Assembly: GCA_965242565.1 (NCBI GenBank) | Contig: OZ251457.1 | Location: 2,904,653 to 2,968,652 of the forward strand | Source of the DNA: Dehalococcoidia bacterium | GTDB lineage: Bacteria > Chloroflexota > Dehalococcoidia > Bin125 | DNA: 64,000 nt | Reading direction: 5' to 3' | Shown: in pieces, positions 5,301 to 31,836 of the stretch | Position numbering within the stretch: position 1 is the first letter of the stretch | Layout of the letters: the number at the start of each line of letters is the position of its first letter | Notes under the pieces: model-generated | Told to the model about the DNA's origin: nothing | Databases searched by the model: none | The model's input: only the letters and a program-made list of their open reading frames with translations | Made by a program: the position numbers and the translations under genes

Positions 5301-8300
5301 ATGGCCCGCCGAACGCCCGCCAACGACCCCGACGCCGTCCGCCGCGCCCTGCGCAGCTGGACCAACCAGCTGATCGACACCGGCGGACGCAACCGTCTGC
5401 TCTACTTCAAACACCTCAAGCGCGGCACCCTCGACCTCGGCCCCGACTCCGGCGCAGACTCCGCCGTCGCCGTCGCCCTCCGGCGCGGGCGCAGCATCAA
5501 ACTCTCCGACTGCTTCCCCGACGACAGCGGCGCCGCCGCCTCCCAGCGCGCTCGCTGGATCCTCCGCAAAGCCCGCGAGCACGAAGAAGAACAGGGCATC
5601 CGCACCCTCTACCTCGGCTGGCGCTTCGCAACCTGGCAGCAGTCCGGCCCCGGCCCCGCTACCCCCAACGCCCCGCTCCTGCTCGCCGCCGCCGAACTCA
5701 CCCCCCAGGGCCGCATGGGCGACGACTTCACGCTCAGCATCGCCGACGACTGGGAGGTCAACCCCAGTATGGCCCAGCTGCTCAAGCGCGAATTCGGCGC
5801 GGAACTCGACGAAGCCGCTCTCGAAGACCTGCTTCAGGCCGACCCGCTCGACGACGCGGCCATCCTCAATCAGCTCCGCCGCGCCTACGACACCATCCCC
5901 GGCTTCAACATCCACGACGGCCTCGTTCTCGGCACCTTTTCCTACGCCAAGCTCCCCATGGTCCGCGACCTTGAAGCCGCCGAAGCCGCCGTCGCCCAGC
6001 ATCCGCTCGTCGCCGCCATCGCCGGCGATCCCCAGGCCCAGGAGCAGCTGCGCGACACTCAGCGCAACGGCGCGCGCGGCCAATCCGTCCCCGGCGGCGA
6101 CGACCTCCCCCCGCGCGACGAGTTCCTCGTGCTCGACGCCGACGGCACCCAAAGCGAAGTGATCAACGCCGCCGTCGCCGGCGCAAACCTCGTCGTCGTC
6201 GGACCGCCCGGCACCGGCAAAAGCCAAACCATCGCCAACCTGCTCGCCACTCTCACCGCCCACGGGCGCTCAACCCTCTTCGTCGCCGAAAAGCGCGCCG
6301 CCATCGACGCCGTCGTCAAACGCCTCAACAGCGTCGGCCTCGGCGACCTCGTGCTCGACCTCCACGAAGGTATGCGCAGCCGTCGCCAAACCGCCGAACA
6401 ACTCGCCGCCGCCCTCGAAACCGCCCACACCGCCCGCGCCCCCAACGTCGAAACCCTCCAGCGCACCCTCAATCAAAGCCGCAAGAGGTTGAGCGACGCA
6501 GAACGCGAACTGCACCAGCCGCACGAACCCTGGGGCCTGTCGATCTATCAGCTCCAGTCCCGCATTCTCGGGATGGGTGATTCGAAGGACATCGGACTGC
6601 GAACAAGCGGTCGCGCCCTCAACGCGCTTCATGGCGAAGCCCTTGAAGCAGCAAAAGATGAGCTCGCCGAGTACATCAATCTCAACGGCGCAGTTCTGGA
6701 TGCGTCCCCCGATGCCCCCTGGGGCGCAGCCCATCGCGCCTCAACGCTGTCGACAAGTGAGCGGGCAGCCGAAGCAGTCCGGCTGCTGGATGACCTGAGC
6801 GGTCGGCTGCTGCCGGAAGTCGAACACGAGCTGGCGGAGATGGCCCAACATCTGGGCATCGACCCGCCCGCGACAGAGTCGATGACGCAAGCGCTGCTTG
6901 AGGCGCTCGCGCGCTTCGAGCCGCTGCACGGGCGGTTTGCCCCCGCAGCGTTCCAAGCCGGCGATGTGGAGAGCCTGCTCTCAGCGCTTGAGCCCGCCGA
7001 GCGCGGTCCTCTTGCCGAACTCAGCGAGACCGACCTGACGCCGTGGGGAGTGACGGTCGAAGAACTCGATCTACGCATTCAGGCGCTTGGCCCTGCTCCT
7101 GAGACCAGCCTCCGCTTACGCGGCGATCGCCTCAAGCGGCTCCGCGGCGACATGCTGGCGCAAGCGATGGCCGATCTGGAGGAGTACATCGATCGTGGCG
7201 GCGCGGAGCTTGACGTATCCGATGCTGCTCCGTGGAGCGCCGCTCACCGAACGTCATCTCTAAGGTCGGAAGCCGCAATCGATGAGGCCGGGCGCCTCCT
7301 TGATCGGCTCAGCGGCGAATTGCTGCCGGCGCTGGAGCGTGAAATCGCCCCGATCGCACAGCAGTTGGGCATCGCTCCGCCCGCGACAGTGCCGATGACG
7401 CGAGCGTTGCTTGAGGCGCTCACGCGCTTTGGGCCGTTGCACGGACGGTTCACGCCCGCAGTGTTCCAGGCCGACGATGTGGAGAGCCTGCTCTCAGCGC
7501 TTGACCCCGCCGAGCGCGGTCCTCTTGCCGGACTGAGCGCGACCGATTCAACGCCGTGGGGCGTAACGGTCGATGAGCTTGACTCACGCATTCAGGTACT
7601 AGGCCAGGCTCCCGAGACTAATTTGCGCTTGCGTGGCGACGCACTCAAGCGGCTCGGCGGCGACTTGCTGGCGCCGATCATGGCTGATCTTGAGGAGTAC
7701 GTCGATCGCGGCGGCGCGGAGCTTGAGGCATCCGATGCTGCTCCGTGGAGCGCCGCTCACCGAGCGTCAACCCTAAGGTCGGAAGCCGCAACCGATGAGG
7801 CAAATCGTCTCCTTGATCGGCTCAGCGGCGAATTACTGCCGGCGCTAGAGCGAGAAAATACGTCAATCGCACAGCATCTGGGCATCGCCCCGCCGCCTAC
7901 GCCAGAGACGATGCGAATACTGTTCGAGGCTCTGGATCGCTTTGCGCCATTGCAGGCGCGCTTTACGCCTGCCGTGTTCGCAGCAGACAACCTGGATAAC
8001 GTTGTCGCGCAACTCGAAGTCGCGAGCCAAGGCCCTCTTGCCGGCGTTGGCGGCGACCAGCGCACTCCTTGGGGCGTGACAGCTGGCGAACTCGATCTGC
8101 GCATCCAGGCCTTGGGTGATGCTCCGCTGTGCGACTTGCGGCTGCGGGGGGACACGCTGAGTGCGCTGGCTGGCGACTCGTTGCAGCGTATGATTGGGCA
8201 CCTCGCCGAGTACATGAATCGCGGCGGTGCCGATCTTGATGCGTCCTTTGGTGCGTGGAGCCCTGTGCATCAGGCGGCGGCCATCGACTCGAACGAACGG

Positions 8301-11300
8301 GTCGCGACTGCAGCTGACTTGCTCGATGAACTGTCGTCAAAGCTGCTGCCTGGCGTCGAACACGAACTGCGCGGAATCGCCGAACGACTGAGCATCGATG
8401 TACCCGCCACGATCGATGAAGCCCACGCGGCGCTTGCGGCAATTCGGCAAATGCAGGGACAACGGGAATGGTTCGCATCAGCAGTGTTCGACGCGAACGT
8501 CGAAACACTGCTCAGCGATCTGGAGGCCAGCCAGGGAGGTGCATTTGGACAGATCATGGCCCGGCTGTTCAATGCGCGATATCGCAGGGCCGTGCGAGAC
8601 TCACGCGAGTTGCTGCTCGATGAACAATCTTCACCAGGGGAGGCGTACGCTCGCTTGGTCGCGTTCTCCAAGGCGTGCGAAGCGTGGCGTGGCATAGCGC
8701 CGGACGATCCGACCGCCGCCGTCTGGGAGATCGACATTGCGCCGTGCGAGGCTGCCCTGGATCTGTTCTCGGACACGCTCGCGACGTTCCACAACGTAGT
8801 CGGGTTTGGCGACGCTGGCCTCGACTGGGCTGCGCAGCGCGAATGGCTCGACGCGCTGGAGCGCGAACGCGCAGTCTTGCTCCAGCTGCCGCACTTGGGG
8901 TCGCTGCGGAACCTGCTCGAGGACGCATCTGTCGCAGAATTCGCCCGGGAAGCTGAGCGACGAGGGTGGAGTGGGAACGAAGCAGCGCAAGCGCTGGATG
9001 AAGCTTGGACCCACTCCGCCCTTGCCGAGCTGACGGAGAGCGAACCGACTTGGCGTGCGCCGTACCGCGCGGCGCGCGCGAACGCGGACGAATGGCTCGT
9101 CCACCCTGACATGCCAACCGCGTGGGTACATCGGTGGCTGCGCGAGTTCACGGATGCTCGCGACCTGTGGCAACGAGCAACTGCCGCGTCTCCGATACCT
9201 GCGGTCTGGACGATCGCTCCTGACGAGGGCGCTGATGCGCTGGAGCGATTCTCCGAGGCGCTCACTGCATTCTGTGCGCTCGCGGCGCTGGATGATGTCG
9301 ATCTCGACTGGCCAACACAACGAGCACAGCTGAATACACTCCAGAGCCATCGTGCGGTCCTGTTCCAGCTTCAACGCTTGGCTTTCCTGCGCGAGCGTCT
9401 CCAGGACACGGCGGTCCTGGGCTTCGCGCGTGAAGCGCAACGACGTGGTTGGACCGGTGGTAATGCGGCGCAGGCTCTCAGCGATGCTTGGACCCGCTCG
9501 GTGCTTGACGAGGTGCAAGAAAGCGAGCCGACATCACACGCGCCATACCGGGCAGCGCGTGCGCGTGTCGACGAATTGCTGGCTCATGCAGCCATGCCAA
9601 CCGCGTGGGCAACTCAATGGCTGCGCGAGTTCGTGGATGCTCGCGACCTGTGGCAACGAGCCACCACCGCGTCTCCGACACCGGCAGCTTGGACGATTGC
9701 GCCTGACCAAGCCGCCAATGCGCTGGAGCGATTCTCGGAAACGCTCGCTGCGCTTTGTGCGCTCGCCGCGCTGGATGACGCTCACCTCGACTGGTCAGCA
9801 CAGCGAATGCGATTGGAGGCGCTCCAGAACCACCGCGCGGTACTGTCCCAACTCCCACGCTTGGCCTCCCTACGCGAGCGCCTGCAGGACGCCGCGATCC
9901 TGGACTTCGCGCGCGAAGCGCAACAACACGGCTGGACTGGCGATCGCGCCGCGCGGGCCCTCAACGACGCCTGGACTCGCTCGGTGCTTGACGAGGTGCA
10001 AGAAAGCGAGCCGACATCACACGCGCCGTACCGGACAGCGCGTGCGCGGGTCGACGAACTGTTGACTCATACGGCCATGCCGACCGCGTGGGTGGTTCAA
10101 TGGCTGCGCGAGTTCGTCGAAGCTCAGCGCATCTGGCAGCGCGCCGTGGCGTCCACTCCCACCGCTGCCGTCTGGACTGCCTCGCCCGCAAACTGCGCCA
10201 CTGCGCTGGCGCAGTTTGCGGAAGCGGCTGACGCCTTCTCTAATCTCGCGGCGCTCGATGATGCCGCTCTCGATTGGGCGGCGCGGCGGGCGCAGATCGA
10301 CTCGCTGCAACGCGACCGTACAGTCGCGCATCGTCTCCCCCGGTTGCACGACCTGCGGGCAAGCCTGAAACGTCGTGGCATGACGCGACTCGTGGCGGCG
10401 GTCCATCGACGCGGACTCGACGGGCGCGGCGCGGTAGAGGCGTTTGAGGACGCTTGGGCTCGTTCCGTGCTGAATGCGGTGAGCGCGGATGCGCCGATCT
10501 TCGCCTCGTTCAACGCTGACGGGCATAACAAGGCCGTCGCGGAATTCTGCGACGCCGACCGCGAGCACATCGCTCAAAGCCCCCGGCGCGTCGTCCGCGC
10601 CTGGGCCGAAGCCGCCGTCGCCGCACGCGACGAACATCCCGAACAGTCCCAACTGATCATGCGCGAGGCCAACCGCAAGCGGCGCCACCTGCCCACCCGC
10701 GACCTCTTCCAGCAGGCGCCCGACGTGCTTACCGCGCTCAAACCCTGCTGGGTCATGAGCCCGCTCGTCGTCGCCCAGCTGCTTCCGCTCGACGGCGATC
10801 CTCCTTTCGACGTTGTCGTCTTCGACGAAGCCAGCCAAATCCCGCCCGCCGACGCCGTTTCCTCCCTGCTGCGCGGACGCCAGGCCATCGTCGCCGGCGA
10901 CCCCAAACAGCTACCGCCCACCTCCTTCTTCACCAGCAGCACCGACCCTGACGACGACGACGACCTAGTCCCCCTGCTCACCCAGGATGTCGAATCAATC
11001 CTCGACGCCATGAGCACCCTGCTGCCCATGCCCTGGGGCTCCCGCACCCTCGGCTGGCACTACCGCAGCAAGGACGAGCGCCTGATCGCATTTTCCAACC
11101 ACCATGTCTACGACCGCCGCCTCACCACCTTCCCCGGCGCGTTGCCCGACGACTGCCTCGAACATGTCGAAGTTCCCTTCGAGCCGGACGCCTCCTGGGT
11201 CAGCGGCTCCTACTCCCCCGAGGTACAGCGCGTCGTCGAGCTGATCCTGCGGCACGCCGCCGAGCGCCCCGACGAGACGCTCGGCGTGATCGCCCTCGGC

Positions 11301-12320
11301 GCGGCCCACGCCAACCGCATCGCCGAAACCCTGCGCCTCGCCCGACGCGACCGCCCCGAACTCGACGACTTCTTCAGCGAAGCCAACGCCGAACCGTTCT
11401 TCGTCAAAAACCTCGAGCGCGTGCAGGGCGACGAGCGCGACGCCATCATCCTCACCGTCGGCTACGGGCGCACCGAGCACGGCCGCATGCGCTACAACTT
11501 CGGCCCCATCAACCAGGAGGGCGGCTTCCGACGCCTCAATGTCGCCGTCACCCGCGCCAAGCGCCGTATGACCGTCGTCAGCTGCTTTTCCCACAAACAC
11601 ATGGACCCCGGTCGGCTCAACAACGAGGGCGTGCGGATGCTGCGCGACTACATCGAATACGCCGCCGGCGGCGGCCGCAAACTCGGCGCCGGCGCGATCG
11701 ACGCCCCGCCGCTCAACTCGTTCGAGATCGATATCAAAAACCGCCTCGAACGGCGCGGCCTCAAGCTCCAGCCGCAGTACGGCGTCTCCGGCTACCGCAT
11801 CGACTTCGCCGCAATGCACCCCGATGAACCGGGACGCCCCATCCTCGCCATCGAAGCCGACGGCGCGCAATACCACTCCGCCCAGGCCGCGCGCGACCGC
11901 GACCGTCTCCGCCAGGAAAACCTCGAGCGACTCGGCTGGCGCTTCCACCGCATCTGGTCCACCGAGTGGTTCCGCAACCCCGAGCTCGAAGCCGACCGTG
12001 CTCTGGACGCCTACCAAGAAGCGCTCGCCGACGACCGCAAAGCCCCCTCATCCGCGCCGCCGGAAGAACCCCCTGCTGAGCCGCCGGAAGAACCGCCTCC
12101 CCCACCGTCGCGCGACCCGCGACCACCGGTGCAGCCCGGCCAAAAGATCGACGACTACAGCCCCCGCCAGCTGACCAGCATCATCGAGTGGATCGAATCC
12201 GACGGCCGCCTCCGCACCGAAGACGAACTGCTCGCCGAAGCAATGCAAGAACTCGGCTTCAAACGCCGCGGAACCAAAATCGTTGCCGCCCTCACCGAGG
12301 CCATCCGCCGCGCCCGCTGA
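5301..12320 (+). CDS. giant paralogue (2339 aa) of the upstream helicase-nuclease, with the same N-terminal, Walker A (VVVGPPGTGKSQT), motif II (DVVVFDEASQ), REase and DUF3320-like regions. About 1000 extra residues lie between the Walker A and Walker B motifs as tandem repeats
   Basis: Collinear similarity with 1096..5259 at both ends. Starts 41 bp after the upstream stop, on the same strand. Confidence 0.8.
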   Translation: MARRTPANDPDAVRRALRSWTNQLIDTGGRNRLLYFKHLKRGTLDLGPDSGADSAVAVALRRGRSIKLSDCFPDDSGAAASQRARWILRKAREHEEEQGIRTLYLGWRFATWQQSGPGPATPNAPLLLAAAELTPQGRMGDDFTLSIADDWEVNPSMAQLLKREFGAELDEAALEDLLQADPLDDAAILNQLRRAYDTIPGFNIHDGLVLGTFSYAKLPMVRDLEAAEAAVAQHPLVAAIAGDPQAQEQLRDTQRNGARGQSVPGGDDLPPRDEFLVLDADGTQSEVINAAVAGANLVVVGPPGTGKSQTIANLLATLTAHGRSTLFVAEKRAAIDAVVKRLNSVGLGDLVLDLHEGMRSRRQTAEQLAAALETAHTARAPNVETLQRTLNQSRKRLSDAERELHQPHEPWGLSIYQLQSRILGMGDSKDIGLRTSGRALNALHGEALEAAKDELAEYINLNGAVLDASPDAPWGAAHRASTLSTSERAAEAVRLLDDLSGRLLPEVEHELAEMAQHLGIDPPATESMTQALLEALARFEPLHGRFAPAAFQAGDVESLLSALEPAERGPLAELSETDLTPWGVTVEELDLRIQALGPAPETSLRLRGDRLKRLRGDMLAQAMADLEEYIDRGGAELDVSDAAPWSAAHRTSSLRSEAAIDEAGRLLDRLSGELLPALEREIAPIAQQLGIAPPATVPMTRALLEALTRFGPLHGRFTPAVFQADDVESLLSALDPAERGPLAGLSATDSTPWGVTVDELDSRIQVLGQAPETNLRLRGDALKRLGGDLLAPIMADLEEYVDRGGAELEASDAAPWSAAHRASTLRSEAATDEANRLLDRLSGELLPALERENTSIAQHLGIAPPPTPETMRILFEALDRFAPLQARFTPAVFAADNLDNVVAQLEVASQGPLAGVGGDQRTPWGVTAGELDLRIQALGDAPLCDLRLRGDTLSALAGDSLQRMIGHLAEYMNRGGADLDASFGAWSPVHQAAAIDSNERVATAADLLDELSSKLLPGVEHELRGIAERLSIDVPATIDEAHAALAAIRQMQGQREWFASAVFDANVETLLSDLEASQGGAFGQIMARLFNARYRRAVRDSRELLLDEQSSPGEAYARLVAFSKACEAWRGIAPDDPTAAVWEIDIAPCEAALDLFSDTLATFHNVVGFGDAGLDWAAQREWLDALERERAVLLQLPHLGSLRNLLEDASVAEFAREAERRGWSGNEAAQALDEAWTHSALAELTESEPTWRAPYRAARANADEWLVHPDMPTAWVHRWLREFTDARDLWQRATAASPIPAVWTIAPDEGADALERFSEALTAFCALAALDDVDLDWPTQRAQLNTLQSHRAVLFQLQRLAFLRERLQDTAVLGFAREAQRRGWTGGNAAQALSDAWTRSVLDEVQESEPTSHAPYRAARARVDELLAHAAMPTAWATQWLREFVDARDLWQRATTASPTPAAWTIAPDQAANALERFSETLAALCALAALDDAHLDWSAQRMRLEALQNHRAVLSQLPRLASLRERLQDAAILDFAREAQQHGWTGDRAARALNDAWTRSVLDEVQESEPTSHAPYRTARARVDELLTHTAMPTAWVVQWLREFVEAQRIWQRAVASTPTAAVWTASPANCATALAQFAEAADAFSNLAALDDAALDWAARRAQIDSLQRDRTVAHRLPRLHDLRASLKRRGMTRLVAAVHRRGLDGRGAVEAFEDAWARSVLNAVSADAPIFASFNADGHNKAVAEFCDADREHIAQSPRRVVRAWAEAAVAARDEHPEQSQLIMREANRKRRHLPTRDLFQQAPDVLTALKPCWVMSPLVVAQLLPLDGDPPFDVVVFDEASQIPPADAVSSLLRGRQAIVAGDPKQLPPTSFFTSSTDPDDDDDLVPLLTQDVESILDAMSTLLPMPWGSRTLGWHYRSKDERLIAFSNHHVYDRRLTTFPGALPDDCLEHVEVPFEPDASWVSGSYSPEVQRVVELILRHAAERPDETLGVIALGAAHANRIAETLRLARRDRPELDDFFSEANAEPFFVKNLERVQGDERDAIILTVGYGRTEHGRMRYNFGPINQEGGFRRLNVAVTRAKRRMTVVSCFSHKHMDPGRLNNEGVRMLRDYIEYAAGGGRKLGAGAIDAPPLNSFEIDIKNRLERRGLKLQPQYGVSGYRIDFAAMHPDEPGRPILAIEADGAQYHSAQAARDRDRLRQENLERLGWRFHRIWSTEWFRNPELEADRALDAYQEALADDRKAPSSAPPEEPPAEPPEEPPPPPSRDPRPPVQPGQKIDDYSPRQLTSIIEWIESDGRLRTEDELLAEAMQELGFKRRGTKIVAALTEAIRRAR
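6670..8700. repeat. intragenic tandem repeat family A: 4 units of ~510 nt (~170 aa). Unit boundaries fall at about 6670, 7177, 7691 and 8205. The 4th unit is diverged
   Basis: Near-identical nucleotide stretches are visible, e.g. ...gaggagtacatcgatcgtggcggcgcggagcttga... recurs with ~510-nt period. Protein blocks DLEEYIDRGGAELD...APWSAAHR...LGIAPPAT...PLHGRFTPAVFQ are repeated. Confidence 0.8.
8700..10560. repeat. intragenic tandem repeat family B: ~4 units of ~480 nt (~160 aa)
   Basis: Protein blocks FAREAQRRGWTGxxAAQAL(S/N)DAWTRSVLDEVQESEPTSHAPYRxARARVDELLxHxAMPTAWxxQWLREFV recur with ~160-aa period. The corresponding nucleotide stretches are nearly identical. Confidence 0.75.
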
Positions 12321-13242: not shown

Positions 13243-14340
13243 ATGCCACGCTCGATCACCCTCCTCTGCGACATCGACGACGACCTGCGCGCCCGGATCG
13301 AGCAGGCGCAGCGCGCCGCCAACGCCGCCCAGGCCGCCGTCCCCGACGGCTACGAGCGCTTCCTGCGGCGGCGCGGCGGATACCTCAGCGGGCGCGCCTC
13401 CACCGTGATCGAGGGCAACCCGCTCGACGAGCGCGCCTCGCAGCTCGCAGCCTTTGACGGCGAGGGCGACTCGCCGGCTCACATCGACCTGCGCAACTCG
13501 ATCGAAGCCTGCGCGCTCGCGCTCGACTGGGCGCAGGACCTCTCTTTCCACCTCGACCAGGGCGCAATTCGCGCTTTCAATTCCGTGCTCCTGCGCGGCC
13601 TGCCCGGGCGCGCCGCCGACAACCGCGGCCGCTACCGCCTCGGCGGCAGCCTGGTTATGAACACCGCGACCCGCAGCATCGTCTACACCACCCCGCCGCC
13701 CGCCTGGCTGCCCGAACTGATGGACTCGCTGGAAGCGCGCATCGCCGAGTGGCAGCGCGACGACCCGCCCGCCGTCGTCGCCGCCAAAGCCCACTTCAGC
13801 CTCGTCTCCGTGCATCCCTTCGAGGACGGCAACGGCCGCACGGCGCGGCTGCTCGCCGACCTCATCCTGCACCGCGCGGGCCTCACCGCGGACGGAATGG
13901 CCGCGCTGAGCGGCGCCATCCTCAGCCGCCGCGCCGAGTACTACGAAACCCTCGCCGCCGTGCAGGGCGCGGAGTTCCAGTGCGTCGTCGACGTTGCGCC
14001 CTTTGTCCACTTCCACACCTCCGCGCTGCGCGACGCAATCGAAACGCTGCGCAGCTACGTGGACGCGCTGAACCGCCGCCGCCAGACGCTCCAGGCGCTC
14101 CAGGCGCTGCAAGCCGCCGACGCGCTCTCCGAGCGCCGCATCCTCGGCCTCCTTGCAATGCTTCAATTCAGCCCGCTCTCCGCTTCCACCTGGGGCGAGC
14201 TCGCCGAGTGCTCGCCGCAGACCGCCCGAACCGACCTCGCCGCACTGACCGCCGACGGCTTCGTCGAACGCATCGGGCGCGGCAAGGCGACCCGCTACGA
14301 CCTCTCGGCGTACACCCGCGACCTGCTCGGCGCGGCCTAA
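13243..14340 (+). CDS. Fic family protein (Fic/DOC fold)
   Basis: Canonical Fic active-site motif HPFEDGNGRTAR is present in the translation. The C-terminal region is consistent with a winged-helix tail. Confidence 0.85.
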   Translation: MPRSITLLCDIDDDLRARIEQAQRAANAAQAAVPDGYERFLRRRGGYLSGRASTVIEGNPLDERASQLAAFDGEGDSPAHIDLRNSIEACALALDWAQDLSFHLDQGAIRAFNSVLLRGLPGRAADNRGRYRLGGSLVMNTATRSIVYTTPPPAWLPELMDSLEARIAEWQRDDPPAVVAAKAHFSLVSVHPFEDGNGRTARLLADLILHRAGLTADGMAALSGAILSRRAEYYETLAAVQGAEFQCVVDVAPFVHFHTSALRDAIETLRSYVDALNRRRQTLQALQALQAADALSERRILGLLAMLQFSPLSASTWGELAECSPQTARTDLAALTADGFVERIGRGKATRYDLSAYTRDLLGAA

Positions 14341-17019: not shown

Positions 17020-18864
17020 GTGAAGGTGCTAAACTGGGTACTTGGAGGACATCGCAGCGTGGTGAACGCATCGTGGCTTGTCAGGCAAGCAGTCAAATGG
17101 GCGACGATGCTTGTTCGGGCATCGAGGCGCGCCTGGCGTGCCACATGCAGGCTGTGGGCCAGATCGAAAGGCTGGCTCGTCCCGCTTCTGAGCTCGCTGG
17201 TGTTCACATTGGTTGTGTTCGGTTCGCTGTACTGCATTCTTCGAACGGTTGAAGAGTCCGTAGGCAGCGCGGACGCGGGCAATCTCGGGGCCATCCTCGG
17301 GGCGCAAGCCGCGATGACGGCCATCTTCCTCGCGGCGATGATCTTTATCGTGGAAGCGGTCCACCGACGCGAGGACCTCGATGATCCGCTCTACGAGTTG
17401 TTCTTGCGGAAGTCATGGGCGCGGTGGGTCTTCTGCGCCGCCGTCTGGCTTTTCGTCGGCACAGCGGGCGTGTATCTCGTCGGGTCGGTGACTCAGTGGT
17501 CGGCGAGTGTCGGTGGGAGTCGCGGCGACATCTTAGGTTTGGCGTCGCTCGTGACCGCTGCGTTGATCGTCTTGGCGTTCCTGCTCAGAGCGCTCCACAT
17601 CCTTCGTCCGACGACCTACCGAGAGGGCAAGCGAGAGGTGACCGTTGCCCAAGCGCGTGCAGCGGTGCGAGCCCGTGGGCAAGGTTCGGATTTGCAGCGA
17701 CTGCTGGCTCGGATCGGTCGCACGACGTTCGGCAAGTTCACCGAAACCGAAGACCAAGCTAACCGCGTGGTCGAACGCGTAGTTGACGATGCCCATAGGG
17801 CCATTGCCAACGCACGCCTGACGGATGTGCTCGACGCGATCGCGACGCTAGAGAGCGTGGCAGCAGCAGTCGCCGGCGAGATGGAGGTTGTTACGGAGAA
17901 GACGCCGGATGCGTTGCCTGATCAGCGCTCCGATTGGCCGACGTACGGCCCGATGAATGCCGGAGTGCATCGGCTGATCCACGCAGCGTACTCTCAAGGT
18001 AATCCTGACGTCACCACTTCTGCGTCCGAAGCGATACGAAATCGGCTCGCGCCGAGCGTGGAGGGAGGCAGCGAGCTGTTCGTGGCCGTCATCCTAAACG
18101 TGATGCACGACGAGCAGGACATGCCGGACAGGCGCGTCTACCGAAGAGGATCACACCACAACGTGCTCGAGCTCTACGGGATCTTCTCCGATGCTCTGCG
18201 TGCAGCACTGTCCACGACTGACGTTGGTGTAGATGCCGCGCGAAAGGATCGCATCGCGCAGAACGTGATTGCCGGAATTCATACATACGGAGTCAGGGCC
18301 CTGCTGCGTGCCGACCGGCGCGGTTTCGAAGATGTTGCGCAAGTGTTGTTCAGGCAAGTCGAAGTATGGCTCGGAGGGCCTACCACTGGCGCCGTGGATA
18401 ACGACGATACTCACGCGTTGCTGCGTCGAGTTGGGTTGGCGATGGTCGGGCTTGCCTTGGCCAAAGGTGTAAACACCGTTGTGCAAGCTGCGCAGGACCG
18501 ACCGGTTCCTAAGCCCTCGGACTTGTACGACGCTCTTCGCGAAGACGCGCTTGCGAAGTACGGCGTTGTTTCAGAACTCTCAATTGAGTGGTTCCGCGCA
18601 ACTGGACATACCCTGCGCGACGACGAGGACATCGCTTTCATCGAAGAGCGGTCTCTCGACTTCGTGCGACTAGGATACATGTGGTTGATCGTCGCGACGG
18701 AACACGATGACAGTGAGCACTGGGCGTCACACCGAACGCTGATTCGCCAAGAACTGTCGGAAGTCTGGCTCCGCCGTCGGTGGTCCCTGCTACGTGCATT
18801 CGCCGAACCGCGATCCGATGAGTACGCGGCGATCGAGCGGTGGTGCGACCGGGTATTCTCATAG
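17020..18864 (+). CDS. hypothetical integral membrane protein: ~4 N-terminal TM helices followed by a large soluble domain
   Basis: Long ORF with hydrophobic segments (LVPLLSSLVFTLVVFGSLYCIL, AAMTAIFLAAMIFIV, VFCAAVWLFVGTAGVYLV, LASLVTAALIVLAFLL). GC is lower than neighbours. Start codon is uncertain. Confidence 0.5.
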   Translation: MKVLNWVLGGHRSVVNASWLVRQAVKWATMLVRASRRAWRATCRLWARSKGWLVPLLSSLVFTLVVFGSLYCILRTVEESVGSADAGNLGAILGAQAAMTAIFLAAMIFIVEAVHRREDLDDPLYELFLRKSWARWVFCAAVWLFVGTAGVYLVGSVTQWSASVGGSRGDILGLASLVTAALIVLAFLLRALHILRPTTYREGKREVTVAQARAAVRARGQGSDLQRLLARIGRTTFGKFTETEDQANRVVERVVDDAHRAIANARLTDVLDAIATLESVAAAVAGEMEVVTEKTPDALPDQRSDWPTYGPMNAGVHRLIHAAYSQGNPDVTTSASEAIRNRLAPSVEGGSELFVAVILNVMHDEQDMPDRRVYRRGSHHNVLELYGIFSDALRAALSTTDVGVDAARKDRIAQNVIAGIHTYGVRALLRADRRGFEDVAQVLFRQVEVWLGGPTTGAVDNDDTHALLRRVGLAMVGLALAKGVNTVVQAAQDRPVPKPSDLYDALREDALAKYGVVSELSIEWFRATGHTLRDDEDIAFIEERSLDFVRLGYMWLIVATEHDDSEHWASHRTLIRQELSEVWLRRRWSLLRAFAEPRSDEYAAIERWCDRVFS

Positions 18865-18907: not shown

Positions 18908-20071
18908 CTACAGCGCCGCGTAGAGCGCGTCGATCAACCCGTTCACACGCGGGTCGCCGCTCAGGTTGTTCTGCATCTGGTTCATCGTGTAGCCGAAGCC
19001 GATACCCGCATCCAGATCCGCGTAGCCCAGCGAGCCGCCCGCGCCCGGATGCCCGAACGCGCGCGGATTCGGCCCCAGCGGCATGAAATCCGCCGTCAGC
19101 ATCCAGCCCAGACCGAAGCGCGTCGCCAGTTGCAAACAGGCGTCGGGGCCGTGCGACTGCTCGACGATCGCATTCTCGATCGTCGCCGGCTCCAGCACGT
19201 GAATCCCGTCGATTGCCCCGCCGTTCGCCGCGCCGCCGTAGACTCGCGCCAGCGCGCGCGCCGTCGCGTGCCCGTTGGCCGCCGGAATTTCCGCGCCACG
19301 CCAGCCGCGGCTCGCTGTGATGTTCTCCTCGTCCGGCCCCGCGATCGGCGGATTGGAAAACGCCGCCGCCCCTACTGTGTCCGGCCCGCCGAACATCTCG
19401 ATCAGATCAGGCACGTTGGGATCCGGCGGCGCATCGAGCAGCGTCGAAATCCGCCCGTCGAACTCCGGCCCCGTGCCGATGTGCGCGTCCAGGCCCAGCG
19501 GCGCGGCGAACTCCTCGCGCCAGTACGTGCCCAGCGAGCGCCCGTCGATCCGCCGCACCACCTCGCCCACCAGCCAGCCGTAGGTCAGTGCGTGATAGCC
19601 GTGCTGCTCGCCCGGCGTCCACCACGGCTCCTGCTCCGCCAGCGCCTCGCACATTGTGCCCCAGTCGAACAGGTCCTCCATCGTCAGCGGACGCCGCACC
19701 GCGGCCATCCCGGCCTGATGGTTGAGCAGCATCCGCACCGGGATGTCCTCTTTGCCCGCTGCCGCGAACTCCGGCCAGTACTGCGCCACCGGCGCGTCCA
19801 CATCGAGCAGCCCCTGCTCCACCAGCCGATGCGCGCAGAACGCCGCCAGCCCCTTGGTCGTCGAGAACACGTTGACCAGCGTGTTGCGATCCCACGCCCG
19901 CTCCCGCTCCGGCGAATACCAGCCGCCCCACAGGTCCACCACCGGCTCGCCGTTGAGGTACACGGCGACGGCCGCGCCCACATCGCCGTGTTCGCCGAAG
20001 TTGCGCGCAAACGCCTCGCGCACCCCTTCAAACTGCGGCTCGGTCCAGCCAGCGATCGGTGCGTCTGTCAT
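18908..20071 (-). CDS. serine hydrolase, beta-lactamase/esterase (class C-like) family
   Basis: The SxxK motif FSTTKGLAAF lies near the N-terminus. Overall length and composition fit EstB/AmpC-like hydrolases. Confidence 0.8.
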   Translation of the reverse strand: MTDAPIAGWTEPQFEGVREAFARNFGEHGDVGAAVAVYLNGEPVVDLWGGWYSPERERAWDRNTLVNVFSTTKGLAAFCAHRLVEQGLLDVDAPVAQYWPEFAAAGKEDIPVRMLLNHQAGMAAVRRPLTMEDLFDWGTMCEALAEQEPWWTPGEQHGYHALTYGWLVGEVVRRIDGRSLGTYWREEFAAPLGLDAHIGTGPEFDGRISTLLDAPPDPNVPDLIEMFGGPDTVGAAAFSNPPIAGPDEENITASRGWRGAEIPAANGHATARALARVYGGAANGGAIDGIHVLEPATIENAIVEQSHGPDACLQLATRFGLGWMLTADFMPLGPNPRAFGHPGAGGSLGYADLDAGIGFGYTMNQMQNNLSGDPRVNGLIDALYAAL

Positions 20072-20137
20072 GGTCTTCCGCCTCTCATCCGACGCTTGTT
20101 TGCCACAGTCTAAGGCGAGCGACGTGAGGGCGTGCGT

Positions 20138-20881
20138 CTAGAGAAGGCGTGCCGCTTGTAGGGTGGGCGCCTGTAGGAGCGCGTCTTCAATGGCGCTCGC
20201 CAGCTCGTCGGCGGTTTTGACGCAGATCGTCAGCTCGTGGCGCCGCAGCCGGGCGACTGCCGGGCTGTCGGTGTCGGAGTGATCGCGGCGCAGCACCAGG
20301 ACGAGCGGCTGGGGCTGCTTGCGCCCGTCGCGGCTGGTGCGCAGCGCCTCGCGCGCCGCGGCGATCGTGCCGCCCGACTCGCGCGGCTCCACGACAACGA
20401 TCACCGCCGAGAGCGCGCAGATCAGCGCATTGCGGGCCATTGCGCGGTGGACGGACCAGCCTGCGCCCGGCGGGAACTGCGACACGACGGTCAATTTGTT
20501 GTCGAGCTCGGTGTCAAAGCCTCGGTACTCTTCTCGCAGTCGGAATCGCTCGATTCCTTCGGCGAGCACCGCGATGGTTGAGCCTCCCGCCGACAGGGCG
20601 GCGACATGGCCGGCCGTGTCCACGCCGCGGGCGTAGCCGCTGATCAGCGGCATGTCGAGATTTGCCGCCGTCGCTCCCGCCGCCTGCGCCATCGCAATCC
20701 CTTGCTCCGACGCATCGCGCGAGCCGCACAAGCCGACGCCGGCTGTTCGCAGCAGCTCCGCCCTGCCATGCAGATCGAGCGATGCTGCGCCCGTGCCGGA
20801 TTCGCCGAAGACGCGAAGCCACTCCGGCAGCTCGTCCGCGGTGAGATCGAACCTTTCGACATCGTGAATGGTCACGGTCAC
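20138..20881 (-). CDS. DprA/Smf-like Rossmann (SLOG superfamily) protein
   Basis: Translation shows the DprA-type motif series GSRDASEQG...SGYARGVDTAGHVAALSAGGSTIAVLAEGIE...NALICALSAVIVVVEPRESGGT. The start is called at the GTG whose GTGA overlaps the stop of the upstream PRTase gene (4-nt start/stop coupling). The ORF-track start at 20926 would instead give a 49-nt overlap. Confidence 0.75.
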   Translation of the reverse strand: MTVTIHDVERFDLTADELPEWLRVFGESGTGAASLDLHGRAELLRTAGVGLCGSRDASEQGIAMAQAAGATAANLDMPLISGYARGVDTAGHVAALSAGGSTIAVLAEGIERFRLREEYRGFDTELDNKLTVVSQFPPGAGWSVHRAMARNALICALSAVIVVVEPRESGGTIAAAREALRTSRDGRKQPQPLVLVLRRDHSDTDSPAVARLRRHELTICVKTADELASAIEDALLQAPTLQAARLL

Positions 20882-21732
20882 GCCTCCATCGGCCAGTTGT
20901 CGGTGCTGGCCGTGAGGCCGTGGCAACCCCTGGCCGCTTTCGTCGCCGTCAGCGACAGAACTTCTCGAGCTCCGGCGGAGCGCAGGGCCAGCGTCATCGC
21001 CCCAACCGTGGCGCCCGACTCGTAGATGTCGTCAATGACCAGGACGCTCTTGCCCGCCGCATCGCCGATCACATCATAGTGCCGCGCGAGGCTTTCAGCG
21101 GATGCCTTTTCCTTCTCCGCCAGACCCTTTTGAGGCACCGTGTTCGATGACCGGATCGTCGCGATCGTTTTAGAGGTGAGCGACGACAGGTGCTCTGCGA
21201 TCATCGCTGGAAGGTCATATGCCTTGTCCGGATTGGTCGACGGTGCGGGAACGATCAGATCGGCATCGCAATAGAGCGGCATCACCGTGATCCACTGGAG
21301 CATCTCGTCGGCGAGCCGTTTTGCGGCCTGCTGATCGCCGCAGTTCCGTTCCCGGTCGTAGGATTTCGCTCGGCGTACCAGCTTGCCGATATCGGAGCGC
21401 ACCCAGCCGCTCGTCTCCTCATCCTTCGCATCATGGATGCGCAGCGCATGCGACGCATCGGCGGAATCGTTGATGGTCACGCTCGTCTCGAGCAGATACA
21501 GAACGGTCTCGGCCTGGGCGTGCAGGCTGTTCGCGCTGTTCGCGCCGCAACGGGCCTCGCCCTGAATGCAGCCGTTCGGGAGCGTCGCGATCTCCCAGTC
21601 CGGCAAGAGCCGCTGCACGATGGGGCCAAAGTCGACGGCCGGCCTGGCGTTTCGAGGCGACGCAACCAGGAAACGCCGGCCGGAACCAACGGCTGCGAAG
21701 GACACGCGCTCCAGGCGACCGCAGACAGGCAT
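20878..21732 (-). CDS. phosphoribosyltransferase-domain protein (ComF/type I PRTase-like)
   Basis: PRPP-binding motif VLVIDDIYESGATV lies near the C-terminus. Start is called at the internal ATG (MPVCGRLERV...); the ORF-track 5' extension is unsupported. The gene is directly coupled to the downstream DprA-like gene. Confidence 0.7.
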   Translation of the reverse strand: MPVCGRLERVSFAAVGSGRRFLVASPRNARPAVDFGPIVQRLLPDWEIATLPNGCIQGEARCGANSANSLHAQAETVLYLLETSVTINDSADASHALRIHDAKDEETSGWVRSDIGKLVRRAKSYDRERNCGDQQAAKRLADEMLQWITVMPLYCDADLIVPAPSTNPDKAYDLPAMIAEHLSSLTSKTIATIRSSNTVPQKGLAEKEKASAESLARHYDVIGDAAGKSVLVIDDIYESGATVGAMTLALRSAGAREVLSLTATKAARGCHGLTASTDNWPMEA

Positions 21733-21986
21733 GGCATGCTCTCCTTCCACCGCTCCGCTGTCGGCCCGCATGATAGTACACAAGTTCGGTTGCTGTACAG
21801 CCGTCGCCGCTCGCCAGCGCCTCTCTCCCAACTCGTCATAAACGTCGGTGCAGCCCGCGCGGGAGCGACGGCCATCCTGTCGCGTGCTCGTGCGGTTAGC
21901 CTTGGGGCATCGCACAGGCGCAGTTGACACGCAGTTGGCATGCAGTTGACAAGGGCGTGCTGCGCACGACTGGAGAGGAGTTCGAG

Positions 21987-22934
21987 ATGCAAGAGGTTCC
22001 GAGCGAAGCGCAGGTCATCGACTGGATGGACGAACTCTCCAACTGGGGCCGCTGGGGCGACGACGACCAGCTCGGCACGCTCAACCTCGTCACCCCCGAG
22101 GTGCGCCGCGCCGCCGCCGCGCTCGTCTCCGAGGGCGTGCCCGTCTCCTGCGCCTGGGATATCGAGAACACCCACCAGCCCGACCACGCCATGGGCACCC
22201 CGCAGCGCTTCATGGTCGCCACCGGCGAGAGCGCCGCCGCCCAGGCCGAACGCGGCGCGCGCATGGGCGGCTGCCTCGAATTCTTCGGCCTCGTCTACCA
22301 CGGCTACGCCATCACCCACCTCGACGGCCTCTGCCACATCTTCTGGGACGGCAAGATGTACAACGGCCGCCCCGCGCACCTGGTCAACGCCGCCGGCGGC
22401 GCGACCAACCTGCCGATCACCGAACTGCGCGACGGCGTCGTCACCCGCGGCGTCATGCTCGACATCGCCGCGCTCAAGGGCGTCGACTGGCTGGAGCCGG
22501 GCGAAGGCGTCTTCCCCGAAGACCTGGAGGCCGCCGAGCAGCGCCAGGGCGTGCGCGTGCAATCCGGCGACGCCGTGCTGCTGCGCACCGGCTACGGACG
22601 CCGCAAGCGCGAGGTGGGCCGCGAGCCGCTGCTCGAAACCGGCTTCCCCGGCTGGCATGTCGCCTGCGCGCCCTGGCTGCGCGAGCGCGGCGTCTCCGTA
22701 ATCGGCGCCGACACCGCGACCGACGTCAACCCCTCCGGCTACAACGAGCTGCGCATCCCGCTCCACGCCGTCGGCATCGTCGCCATGGGCCTCTGGCTGA
22801 TCGACAACATGCAGCTCGAGGACCTGGCCGCCGCCTGCAACCGCTACAACCGCCACGAATTCCAGTTCGTGCTTAGCCCGCTCCGCATCATCGGCGGCAC
22901 CGGCAGCCCCGCCAACCCCCTCGCCATCTTCTGA
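21987..22934 (+). CDS. putative cyclase / kynurenine-formamidase-like family protein
   Basis: ATG at 21987 is preceded by ggagaggag. The translation resembles cyclase-family proteins. Confidence 0.7.
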   Translation: MQEVPSEAQVIDWMDELSNWGRWGDDDQLGTLNLVTPEVRRAAAALVSEGVPVSCAWDIENTHQPDHAMGTPQRFMVATGESAAAQAERGARMGGCLEFFGLVYHGYAITHLDGLCHIFWDGKMYNGRPAHLVNAAGGATNLPITELRDGVVTRGVMLDIAALKGVDWLEPGEGVFPEDLEAAEQRQGVRVQSGDAVLLRTGYGRRKREVGREPLLETGFPGWHVACAPWLRERGVSVIGADTATDVNPSGYNELRIPLHAVGIVAMGLWLIDNMQLEDLAAACNRYNRHEFQFVLSPLRIIGGTGSPANPLAIF

Positions 22935-23521: not shown

Positions 23522-24853
23522 CTAGGGGGTAGGGGCTTCCGTTTGACCCTCGTGATTGCGTCCCCAGCACGCAATTTCCCCGTTGTGCGTAACCCCGCAG
23601 GTGTGATGGTCTCCAGCGCTAACAGCTGTCCACCGACCATCCGGAACCTCGGTTTGCCCATAGTCGTTGGCTCCCCAACACACGATCTCGCCAGTAGTGC
23701 GTAGACCGCACTTGTGGGCAGGGCCCAAACCTACACCAGCACTGACAGTAGTGAAGCTCCCAGCAGGAGTGCCGGTTTGCAAGATGTCCGCAGCCACCCA
23801 GCACACGAGCTCACCAGTGCCACGCACTGCACAATCGCCGCCGCCGGTACCGATCGCGGTGAAGGTCCCTATCCGCGTCCTGTTGCCTGCCCGTCCCCAA
23901 CACTCGATCTCTCCCGTTGTGCGCAGGCCGCAGGTGTCCGCCCACCCTGCACTGATTGCGGTGAAACTGCCCACTGGCGTGTCGACTTGTCCGAAGTCGG
24001 CATTGGCTCCTGCCCATCCGCCTCCCCAACACTCAATTCCGCCTGTCGCATGCAGACCGCAGGTGTGTGTATAGCCGCTCGTGACGGCCGTGAAAACACT
24101 CCCTGCTGGCGGGTTACTTTGCCCGAAGATATTGCCGCCCCAGCACACGATCCTGCCCGTATCGCGCACTCCGCAGGTGTGGAGTTGACTGGCACTGACG
24201 GCAGTGAAGATCCCGGTGGGGGCATTTGCTTGGCCCCAGTCAACGGTGAGCTCGTCTTCGATCGTGGTGTCCGTATTAGCACCCCAGCACGTGACCTCGC
24301 CTGTTCTGCGAAGGCCACAAGTGTGCCAGCGCCCAGCACTGACCGCTATGAAGCGCTGAGGCTGCGCTACGATCGTGATCTCCGTGCTGCGCAACCAGCG
24401 GCCTACGCGGGCGCCAACTGGGAAGTAGCGCGACGGCGGGGCGATGCGCTCGCCATCTGTCGGCGTGAATGCGAATTCGATCCGGCCGTCGTCCCTCAGT
24501 CGCGCGTTGATCCGGCCAATCTCCACGCCGTCTACCTCTACCGGGCTGCTGTTCAGCCAACGGTCTACCTCTGCGTCGGCGGGGAAGTAGCGGGCGCGCG
24601 GCAAGACTCGCTCTCCGCCGGCGGGCTGCCAGCCGAACTCCGTTCGGCCGTCGTCGAGTCGCTGCGCGACGATGCGGCCTGTCTGCTCGTCGTCGCTCTG
24701 CGCGTGCGCGATCCCTGCCGCCCAAGCCGCCGTCAATGCCAGCAGCGCCGCCAATCCCAGCAGCAGCGCTTTAGTTGAGGGTTTTACCCCCCCCCCCCCC
24801 GAGATCCGTCCAAACGCGCAGACGCATGACCAGTTTCCCCTCCTGCCGGCCAC
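23522..24853 (-). CDS. secreted RCC1-repeat (beta-propeller) protein with two N-terminal ~50-aa modules
   Basis: Repeated HTCG(L/V)...GxxxCWG blocks (~8 copies). A signal-peptide-like KPSTKALLLGLAALLALTAAWAAGIAHA is present. The annotated start is GTG at 24853; see the homopolymer finding. Confidence 0.8.
   Translation of the reverse strand: MAGRRGNWSCVCAFGRISGGGGVKPSTKALLLGLAALLALTAAWAAGIAHAQSDDEQTGRIVAQRLDDGRTEFGWQPAGGERVLPRARYFPADAEVDRWLNSSPVEVDGVEIGRINARLRDDGRIEFAFTPTDGERIAPPSRYFPVGARVGRWLRSTEITIVAQPQRFIAVSAGRWHTCGLRRTGEVTCWGANTDTTIEDELTVDWGQANAPTGIFTAVSASQLHTCGVRDTGRIVCWGGNIFGQSNPPAGSVFTAVTSGYTHTCGLHATGGIECWGGGWAGANADFGQVDTPVGSFTAISAGWADTCGLRTTGEIECWGRAGNRTRIGTFTAIGTGGGDCAVRGTGELVCWVAADILQTGTPAGSFTTVSAGVGLGPAHKCGLRTTGEIVCWGANDYGQTEVPDGRWTAVSAGDHHTCGVTHNGEIACWGRNHEGQTEAPTP
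24787..24800. repeat. C14 (G14 on the coding strand) homopolymeric tract inside the 5' end of the RCC1 gene
   Basis: Plus strand reads ttttaCCCCCCCCCCCCCCgagat. On the coding strand it encodes SGGGGV immediately before the signal peptide. Confidence 0.9.
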
Positions 24854-30045: not shown

Positions 30046-31836
30046 CTATTCCTCAATCGGGCGCAGCACCATGTACTTCTCCAGCCATTCGACGATCTCG
30101 GGCGTGAGGTAGCGCTCCATGTTCGGGACTGCCGGATCTGGCACGCCCGCATGATTGAGAATGTAAAACGAGCAGAGCTCGGCGCTCAGCTCTCTGGGAC
30201 TGATGGAGTAGATGTTGCGGAAGATGCTGCCCCTTGGCAACACCCAGCTCCAGCCATTCGAGTGCCGCCGGAAGCCGACGAGCTTGATGAACTCCTGCGC
30301 CGCATCGGGCATGTGCTCGATCGCACGCGCGTAGATCCAACCTCTTTCCACCCACCCCAAAGACGGATGGTCAAACACGACCGGCCGGCCGGGCCTGTCT
30401 TGCTGAACGTCATAGTAGTTTTGCTGCCCATGGCACAGTTCGTGCGCGTCGAGGCTGGGACTTAGCAAGTGTTCCCCGCGCTGCTGGTAGACTCGATGTG
30501 CCGGTGATCCTTCCTCGGCATTGTGAGTGATGACAGGAAGTACTTGTAGGAGCAGGCCGCTGTCGCCGGTCGAATGGTATAGACCCCCCCCAAAGCCGCG
30601 GCCTCCGGGGACTATCTGTCTGACGATGCACAGGTGAGGCAGTACAGGAAGCAGCTGAGTTACCGCATGCTGCACATCCGGATGGTATGTCTGGGCGCAT
30701 GGCGCGTCGTCATCGAATATCCGGAATTCTGGGTTGAAGCGACGTCGATCTCGTGTTTCCGCCCAGGACAGGCACTGCCGGCCGGCGTCGATTGTTCCTG
30801 TGAGCTGGTCGTAGGTGCAAATGTTGATGCAGTCCGCCCAGAGTGTGCCGGCCGGAACAAACTCCGCGTAGTCGTCGGCGAACTGCTGAATCAGCACGGC
30901 TCCCACATTGTATTGGTTGTAAGCGCGCCAGCCGTCATCATGGAGGATGATCGTGTTCGCCATACAGCCCATGGTGGCCAGTCGTGCTTTCAGGTGATAG
31001 AGCGAGCCGCCGCCGTATTGGACCGGGAAGAGTCGGTCGTATTCGTCGGGGATCTCGGCGATGACCTGAGTTGGTTGGAGTGCGGCCCCGATCGTCGGGT
31101 CGGTTGCGGTCGGGTCGTTGAGAACCTCTCGCAGGTCAACGCAGTCGGCCCAAAGCGCGCCGGCGGGCGCGGAGCGTGCGTAGGTCTCGACGAATTGCCG
31201 ATTCTGAGCCGCCGGAACGCTAAATCGACTGTACGCGCTCCGCCGGTCATCGTTTACCACGATGATGTCGGCGATGCAGCCCGCGATGGCCAGGCGGAGA
31301 TACAGGTCGTACAGAGAGCCGCCGGTCCACCGGAATGGAAAGAACTGGTCGTGCTCGCCCGGAATGTCGGCGATGATGGGGCGGTTCTCCGGCTCGAGTC
31401 CATGGCTGGCGGGCGGCGGGTCGCCAAGCCGGCTGGTCAGGTCCGCGCAGTTTACCCAGAGTGGTCCCGACGGCACGAAACTCCCGTAGGTTTCGATGAA
31501 CGGTGAGTTTATCGCAGCGGGAACGTCGAAGTGGTTGTAGCCGTGCCACCGGCCGCCGTCGTAGAGCCAGATCGTGTTGGCGATGCAGCCGCGCACGGCG
31601 AGCTGCGCGCGGAGCTGCCGGAGAGAGCCGCCGCTCCATTGAACCGCAAAGAAATGCCCGTAGTCGTCGGGAATGGCGGCGACAAGCTCGATCGGTTGTC
31701 CCGATCTGTTGTGTGCTTCGTCGCCGGACTCTGCCTGTTCGCCGTCGTCCGCGGCCGCTGAACCAACGCCGATCAACAGCGCCGCCAGCAAGGACGCGGC
31801 CAGGATCAGCGCACGAGTCACACTCTGCACACACAT
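30046..31836 (-). CDS. secreted protein with three tandem ~95-aa repeats and a C-terminal HExxH (HELCH) putative zinc-peptidase-like domain
   Basis: Signal peptide LILAASLLAALLIGVGSAAA. Three copies of IPDxY..F(F/P)..(W/Y)xGGSL..L...LA..GC(I/M)ANTI.L.D.GRW..YN.F.VPAA.N..F.ETY...VP.G.LW..C.DL. A C-terminal HELCHGQQNYYD is also present. Confidence 0.65.
   Translation of the reverse strand: MCVQSVTRALILAASLLAALLIGVGSAAADDGEQAESGDEAHNRSGQPIELVAAIPDDYGHFFAVQWSGGSLRQLRAQLAVRGCIANTIWLYDGGRWHGYNHFDVPAAINSPFIETYGSFVPSGPLWVNCADLTSRLGDPPPASHGLEPENRPIIADIPGEHDQFFPFRWTGGSLYDLYLRLAIAGCIADIIVVNDDRRSAYSRFSVPAAQNRQFVETYARSAPAGALWADCVDLREVLNDPTATDPTIGAALQPTQVIAEIPDEYDRLFPVQYGGGSLYHLKARLATMGCMANTIILHDDGWRAYNQYNVGAVLIQQFADDYAEFVPAGTLWADCINICTYDQLTGTIDAGRQCLSWAETRDRRRFNPEFRIFDDDAPCAQTYHPDVQHAVTQLLPVLPHLCIVRQIVPGGRGFGGGLYHSTGDSGLLLQVLPVITHNAEEGSPAHRVYQQRGEHLLSPSLDAHELCHGQQNYYDVQQDRPGRPVVFDHPSLGWVERGWIYARAIEHMPDAAQEFIKLVGFRRHSNGWSWVLPRGSIFRNIYSISPRELSAELCSFYILNHAGVPDPAVPNMERYLTPEIVEWLEKYMVLRPIEE

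Follow-up and report, generated by a model that had tools for sequence, protein, structure and literature searches.

The minus strand of positions 20138-21732 in the 64-kb stretch analysed here (contig OZ251457.1 of a Dehalococcoidia bacterium, 66.6% GC; referred to as the window) carries two co-directional open reading frames (ORFs) with exactly these outer coordinates. By its domain matches the product of the first gene is a ComF-like type I phosphoribosyltransferase (PRTase) of 284 amino acids (aa), and that of the second is a DprA/SLOG Rossmann protein of 245 aa. We consider it likely that the pair represents a self-contained toxin-antitoxin or abortive-infection module for phage defence, belonging to the PRTase-DprA superfamily of ShosTA and PsyrTA/RqlHI. 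The family kinship with these systems is well supported by the sequence comparisons, whereas toxicity, mode of neutralisation, trigger, substrate and also the anti-phage function are extrapolated from ShosTA and RqlHI. The proposal is based on this kinship, on the closeness to PsyrT, the kept functional residues, the conserved pairing of the genes, their defence context and the published mechanisms of ShosTA and RqlHI.

A PRTase toxin combined with a DprA-like antitoxin is known already, with structures for two members, and is not a new category. New in the present case are a PsyrT-type PRTase without helicase, its private N-terminal subdomain, a minimal antitoxin lacking a SAM domain, and the occurrence in Dehalococcoidia.

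Kinship of the two proteins with PsyrTA and ShosTA

In PsyrTA/RqlHI the toxin (RqlH/PsyrT) consists of a RecQ helicase and a C-terminal PRTase, which is needed for genotoxicity; the exchange D663A in RqlH abolishes the effect (PMC4670107). The antitoxin (RqlI/PsyrA) has a DprA-like region only, and RqlI attaches to RqlH's PRTase domain (PMC4670107). ShosTA comprises two genes, one for a PRTase as toxin and one for a DprA-like protein as antitoxin (Millman et al. 2022 preprint, 10.1101/2022.05.11.491447). ShosT (424 aa) combines a HAD-like pyrophosphatase domain at its N-terminus with a PRTase domain of non-canonical type (PMC11961720, PMC12961424), and its toxicity requires binding of phosphoribosyl pyrophosphate (PRPP) by D331/D332, the D331A/D332A mutant being non-toxic (PMC11961720). 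ShosA, a DprA-like dimer, depends on binding to single-stranded DNA (ssDNA; R139, R234) and to RecA (K200, R206) but does not bind ShosT (PMC11961720, PMC12961424).

The window PRTase matches the Pfam family PF00156 with 26.3 bits at residues 179-262, which is exactly the gathering cutoff. NCBIfam models yield sub-threshold PRTase matches only, with comF (TIGR00201) reaching 25.3 bits vs a cutoff of 233.55. Among the PADLOC models PsyrT is matched with 45.6 bits (E 7.9e-13), whereby residues 98-266 correspond to model positions 523-684 of 689, the C-terminal PRTase part. The ShosT model PDLC03962 is matched with 34.6 bits (E 4.4e-9, model positions 79-210 of 237). Neither a hydrolase domain (Pfam scan) nor a helicase domain (Pfam and PADLOC scans) was found in the 284-aa protein. 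Its AlphaFold model, a confident one (pLDDT 91.5), places an alpha/beta subdomain at the N-terminus, ahead of an extended type I PRTase.

Conserved positions of the PRTase core (approximately residues 65-266) comprise D89, D92, S94, H100, G116, K123, Y125, P164, K170, D173-L-P, K202, D234-D235-x-Y, G240, T242 and K265. The acidic pair D234/D235 of the PRPP-binding loop does not vary among close family members, and 142 of 149 wider representatives have it as well. By alignment it corresponds to D331/D332 of ShosT, and in the profile-profile comparison (hhalign) the loop pairs with the VIDD loop of ShosT. The same comparison of family vs ShosT extends from the pyrophosphate loop to the PRPP loop with a probability of 86% (E 4.7e-6). 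The N-terminus of ~62 residues with its MPxC start contains a single conserved Cys. Only ~43 of the 149 representatives carry an N-terminus of this type, hence the subdomain is specific to a subfamily.

In all ten sampled family representatives as well as in all PRTase partners of the related loci the PsyrT model scores higher than the ShosT model. Moreover, the profile of the window family reaches 97-100 bits on two fusions of a PRTase with a helicase or large protein, one of which, P0159 with 1029 aa, joins a full RecQ (DEAD, Helicase_C, RecQ_Zn_bind, RQC, HRDC) to a PRTase. The nearest relative of the window PRTase is thus the PRTase domain of PsyrT-type toxins. In contrast to these toxins it has neither the RecQ helicase nor HRDC and RQC, measures 284 aa instead of ~690-1030 aa and owns a private 62-residue alpha/beta subdomain at its N-terminus. 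We read it as a stand-alone PsyrT-type PRTase without helicase, which would give the pair a layout like that of ShosTA.

As in ShosTA, the PRTase (PF00156) and DprA (PF02481) genes are adjacent and co-directional. The putative toxin gene comes first and the putative antitoxin gene second, like in rqlH-rqlI (PMC4670107). Both ShosTA references show the opposite order: in a P2-like E. coli phage (L013) ShosA, annotated as an ORF of 349 aa, precedes the 424-aa ShosT (973 bits on PDLC03012, 180 bits on the other PADLOC ShosT model), and on a Sphingobium plasmid (L014) ShosA precedes a short ShosT of 221 aa (142 bits). The window PRTase differs from E. coli ShosT by lacking the N-terminal HAD/pyrophosphatase domain (ShosT residues 1-164). 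As the 221-aa Sphingobium protein indicates, not every ShosT has this domain.

The DprA-like protein is matched by PF02481 with 111.7 bits (E 3.6e-32), by PADLOC PsyrA with 135 bits (E 9.1e-40) and by PADLOC ShosA with 103.7 bits (E 2.7e-30). It scores best on PsyrA, although with 245 aa vs 398 model positions the Rossmann core alone is matched (positions 123-265). The dprA model TIGR00732 gives 87.4 bits vs a cutoff of 191.15. In the alignment the ssDNA-binding residues R139, R234 and R261 of ShosA correspond to R53, R148 and R175, and the RecA contacts K200 and R206 to R112 and R118, both basic, RecA binding itself being predicted. The dimer contacts L181/F182 of ShosA are not kept (S95/A96). 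Moreover, just ~35 residues precede the Rossmann core and a SAM domain is missing, a further difference from ShosA. The last eight residues are predicted to be disordered.

These results agree with the sequence-only reading of the two genes as a ComF-like PRTase and a DprA/SLOG Rossmann protein, and with the kinship to PsyrTA/RqlHI it suspected. It had taken both domains, however, as the content of the PsyrA/RqlI antitoxin and considered a split or orphan antitoxin. This does not hold because the PRTase belongs to the toxin PsyrT/RqlH (PMC4670107; model positions 523-684), so that the pair contains a toxin-type and an antitoxin-type component. Its further option of an uncharacterised two-gene defence module comes closest: the pair is seemingly of the defence type, but the kind is already known from the ShosTA layout, which had not been named.

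Conserved pairing and genomic context

At thresholds of E < 1e-10 and E < 1e-30 an exhaustive profile search yielded 843 and 68 PRTase clusters (50% identity), respectively; with few exceptions these are stand-alone proteins of 200-300 aa. Pairing was evaluated in 11 distinct loci, represented by 12 locus records since L001 and L006 lie on the same contig. Five loci from metagenome-assembled genomes (MAGs) of Dehalococcoidia or Tepidiformaceae were obtained by a genome scan, further loci from metagenome contigs. The search for homologous pairs, as proposed by the sequence-only reading, revealed the partner gene directly adjacent in 11 of 11 loci with varying flanks and no comEA, comEC or comFA in the gene tables. 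The pairing persists where PRTase identity is down to 27-31% and is shared by different phyla (MAGs of Dehalococcoidia, Amycolatopsis, Tenggerimyces). In the actinomycetes Amycolatopsis (L010, CP092497.1) and Tenggerimyces (L012) the two genes form no operon but are transcribed divergently from intergenic regions measuring ~290 and 455 bp, respectively. Flanking genes are secDF in L004, ornithine decarboxylase and holB-like genes in L002, and genes for a KAP NTPase and TIR-SAVED in L010. A tblastn search of the window PRTase against plasmids returned no match.

L001 is syntenic with the window, sharing with it the succession of acyl-CoA dehydrogenase, DUF4011 helicase, Fic, CoA-transferase, beta-lactamase-family gene, then the pair and a cyclase. 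Indels distinguish the two loci, with a second helicase plus a 614-aa ORF present in the window and a methyltransferase gene in L001. The latter encodes an N6/N4 DNA methyltransferase of 250 aa (L001 9139-9891) and lies directly upstream of the pair where in the window the cyclase gene abuts it. It was rejected as a component of the system, being found neither in the window nor in the other loci. A related Dehalococcoidia genome (L011) carries a different, divergent PRTase/DprA-like pair of 245 and 232 aa (L011 5252-6699), with ~45% identity of the DprA-like proteins and 134 bits for the 245-aa PRTase on the family profile. This pair resides elsewhere in the conserved neighbourhood shared with the window, at the junction of the beta-lactamase and CoA-transferase genes, which suggests a local integration hotspot for defence genes.

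In the window the GC content at third codon positions (GC3) amounts to 0.74 and 0.79 for the two genes of the pair vs 0.88-0.92 in the flanking metabolic genes. Two tandem helicase-nucleases resembling Hhe and PDC-S37 are located 8-19 kb from the pair, consistent with the Hhe-like pair already seen nearby in the sequence-only reading. Both exhibit DUF4011, AAA_11/AAA_12 (superfamily 1, SF1) and a C-terminal MTES_1575/DUF559 nuclease; the second has an insert of ~1400 residues between the Walker-A region and the remaining helicase. L001 has one such gene. A gene for a SoFic-like Fic-domain protein lies between the helicase-nucleases and the CoA-transferase gene, an arrangement that is the same in L001. 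A RecQ-like gene adjoins the pair neither in the window, as had been noticed before, nor in the related loci. The Hhe-like helicases were rejected as the missing partner; their SF1, DUF4011 and MTES_1575 parts set them apart from RecQ, and L002, L004, L010, L011 and L012 lack them.

Proposed mechanism and rival explanations

According to the proposed mechanism the 284-aa PsyrT-type ComF-like PRTase would act as toxin. It would bind PRPP via its conserved DD loop and perturb nucleotide or DNA metabolism, which by analogy to ShosT and RqlH would lead to replication stress and DNA damage. The DprA-fold protein (245 aa), with its ssDNA-binding arginines and RecA-contact basic residues of the ShosA type, would represent the antitoxin. 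Since these residues are kept, neutralisation would most likely follow one of two modes: an indirect one by RecA-dependent repair (type IV, as for ShosTA), or direct binding of the PRTase domain in the way RqlI acts on RqlH. Phage infection might remove or titrate the antitoxin, either via host shut-off or via phage ssDNA and replication intermediates, and the toxin thereby freed would abort the infection.

Several points speak against this proposal. We know of no experiment on the helicase-less clade of PsyrT-type PRTases with a DprA-like partner. The window PRTase is a remote relative of ShosT: it reaches its 34.6 bits on the ShosT model vs 142-180 bits for true ShosT, the window-family profile scores 13 bits on E. 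coli ShosT and -0.7 bits on that of Sphingobium, and sequence searches of the PDB with the PRTase did not bring up ShosT. Moreover the PRTase domain of RqlH alone, without the helicase part, is not toxic in E. coli (PMC4670107). Toxicity of a helicase-less PsyrT-type PRTase is hence not guaranteed; this form may need its own N-terminal subdomain or act differently, and the mechanism may differ from that of RqlHI. Regarding the antitoxin, deletion of the SAM domain impaired E. coli ShosA (PMC12961424), and the window protein lacks this domain together with the L181/F182 dimer contacts. The defence-island context is moderate, as metabolic genes are interleaved with defence genes. Finally, part of the spread of the pair is vertical, since its synteny is shared by at least two related genomes of Dehalococcoidia, those of the window and L001.

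A related alternative, which we regard as unlikely, is that helicase-less PsyrT-type PRTases with their DprA-like partners constitute a large separate defence clade with a mechanism unlike both ShosTA and PsyrTA. The clade numbers hundreds of clusters at 50% identity, in which the proteins mostly measure 260-300 aa. For instance, the N-terminal ACT/ferredoxin-like subdomain might sense a ligand or nucleic acid, the enzyme might directly phosphoribosylate DNA or a nucleotide, and the DprA-like protein might be a direct inhibitor or ssDNA sensor instead of a repair factor. To a similarly small degree we would credit a mere addiction module, in which the pair would keep a genomic island stable or act in stress physiology, phage defence being no part of its function. 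It is compatible with the same sequence evidence as the defence module. In addition, RqlHI was first described as a physiology and virulence factor and PsyrTA as a plain toxin-antitoxin system (PMC4670107, PMC8790059), and DprA-like/PRTase pairs occur on plasmids, too (L014). On the other hand ShosTA and PsyrTA protected against phages in tests (10.1101/2022.05.11.491447, PMC11961720), and the neighbours in the window and in L010 are defence genes. Both roles are not mutually exclusive.

Less probable still is a function in natural transformation, with the pair representing the ComFC (DNA uptake) and DprA (RecA loader) of this lineage acting on incoming ssDNA. Compared to ComFC and DprA the window pair stays far below the NCBIfam cutoffs given above for comF and dprA, has no com synteny, lacks accessory domains and occurs in mobile, defence-type contexts. 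No comEA, comEC or comFA was detected among the large ORFs scanned in the 64-kb window or in the gene tables of L001, L002, L004 and L010-L012, in line with the lack of a competence context noted by the sequence-only reading. The DprA-like protein is devoid of an N-terminal SAM domain. Many canonical DprAs carry a C-terminal winged-helix domain, for which 245 aa are probably too short. ComFC possesses a four-Cys zinc finger, whereas the PRTase has one conserved Cys at its N-terminus. Genomic positions are variable, GC3 is below that of the flanks, and defence genes are among the neighbours. The resemblance to ComF itself does not discriminate because the RqlH PRTase is ComF-like as well (PMC4670107). 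Least probable of all, by a narrow gap, appears a nucleotide-signal pair without any toxin-antitoxin relation, in which the PRTase makes a modified nucleotide that the SLOG/DprA fold senses or processes (compare Thoeris ThsA and LOG enzymes). A SLOG Rossmann protein and a PRTase forming a two-gene unit are also known from SLOG-PRTase pairs such as the YpsA-PRTase branch, which comparative genomics of nucleotide-centred conflict systems has described (PMC6459960).

If the defence module proposed here is real, its compact 284-aa PRTase and minimal DprA core of 245 aa would offer a simpler system for studying which physiological substrate defence PRTases such as ShosT and RqlH/PsyrT use, and how their DprA-like partners neutralise them and sense phage. 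The pair also bears on whether the helicase is dispensable for toxicity, which for RqlH in E. coli it is not. Moreover it places the superfamily in MAGs of Dehalococcoidia (Chloroflexota), whose anti-phage repertoire is poorly described, within a small variable island containing Hhe/PDC-S37-like and SoFic-like genes. The practical novelty would be small if existing pipelines simply label the pair 'Shosta'.

Gene calls, junction and further features of the window

A summary of the features is given in Table 1. The public gene call on the 3.26-Mb contig contains exactly the same 284-aa PRTase product, and for the DprA-like protein exactly the 245-aa product starting at 20875. All 38 close PRTase homologues measure 253-301 aa (mostly ~280 aa), and the aligned ones start with MPxCGR. 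A longer PRTase ORF from GTG 21930 was ruled out by these lengths and N-termini and by the position of the Shine-Dalgarno sequence.

For the DprA-like gene the sequence-only reading had proposed that the PRTase stop codon and a GTG start overlap as GTGA. These letters are indeed present, GTG 20881-20879 and TGA 20880-20878 sharing them literally. The Shine-Dalgarno sequence GGAGG is, however, separated from GTG 20881 by 1 nt and from GTG 20875 by 7 nt, and the N-termini of DprA-like homologues match the start at 20875 (MTIHDV...). As spacing, homologues and public gene call agree, the junction most probably consists of the stop, 2 nt and the start GTG 20875, and a 4-nt overlap is disfavoured. 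By homologue N-termini and Shine-Dalgarno position the start TTG 20926 was ruled out, and GTG 20881 was rejected less firmly. A tight operon with probably coupled translation, likewise proposed before, is still supported. In relatives the junction is a 2-nt gap (L001, L004), an 8-nt overlap (L002/L003) or an 11-nt gap (L011).

The promoter-like site upstream of the PRTase gene resembles a sigma-70 consensus (1 found vs 0.1 expected from shuffles) and lies in a region of ~250 bp common to the PRTase gene and the divergent cyclase gene. Downstream, 66 nt (20072-20137) separate the stop of the DprA-like gene from the beta-lactamase-family gene on the same strand, the spacing in L001 being identical. 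No intrinsic terminator was found between these two genes, and read-through is possible. The beta-lactamase-family neighbour is not conserved in other loci. Searches for direct and inverted repeats around 19800-22300 gave short matches at chance level only (67% GC) and no boundaries resembling attachment (att) sites or insertion sequences (IS).

Table 1. Features of the PRTase/DprA-like pair and neighbouring defence-type genes (positions in the window).
Feature	Position	Strand	Description
PRTase gene, putative toxin	20878..21732	-	ATG 21732 to TGA 20878; 284 aa; PsyrT-type without helicase
N-terminal subdomain of PRTase protein	21547..21732	-	Residues 1 to ~62; start MPVCGR; ferredoxin/ACT-like alpha/beta fold
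PRPP-binding loop VLVIDDIYESGAT	21007..21045	-	Residues 230-242; acidic pair D234/D235
DprA-like gene, putative antitoxin	20138..20875	-	245 aa; alternative in-frame GTG at 20881
DprA/SLOG Rossmann core	20321..20773	-	Residues ~35-185; motifs GSR (R53), SGYARGVD, RN (R148), GGT; from alignments
Promoter-like site TGTACA-18 nt-TATCAT	21770..21799	-	Sigma-70-like; upstream of PRTase gene; consensus match only
Shine-Dalgarno AAGGAG, PRTase gene	21741..21746	-	8 nt 5' of ATG; read off the sequence
Shine-Dalgarno GGAGG, DprA-like gene	20883..20887	-	Inside the last PRTase codons (M-E-A); read off the sequence
Helicase-nuclease 1	1096-5259	+	1387 aa; PDC-S37 951 bits, Hhe 478 bits (PADLOC)
Helicase-nuclease 2	5301-12320	+	2339 aa; PDC-S37 961 bits, Hhe 481 bits (PADLOC)
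Fic-domain protein, SoFic-like	13243-14340	+	365 aa; PADLOC SoFic E 2.5e-40, 137 bits

Some further genes of the window deserve mention. The 614-aa ORF (17020-18864, plus strand) has no Pfam or PADLOC match and the lowest GC content of the region (0.60-0.62 vs ~0.68). It occupies the beta-lactamase/CoA-transferase junction where L011 has its own pair, and might represent one more insertion of an accessory or defence gene. ORFs of 596 aa (30046-31836) and 945 aa (57312-60149), both on the minus strand, match no Pfam family at E <= 1e-5. A protein of 1007 aa (39893-42916, plus strand) combines an N-terminal sacsin/HATPase-like part with a C-terminal NOV_C (DUF3883); with a GC3 of ~0.75 vs ~0.9 in its neighbours the gene may be a horizontally acquired conflict-type gene. 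A 443-aa protein (23522-24853, minus strand) exhibits multiple RCC1-type repeats (RCC1_2, E 4.2e-38) behind a hydrophobic, signal-like N-terminus, and the local GC content of its gene (0.63-0.65) is below that of the neighbours.

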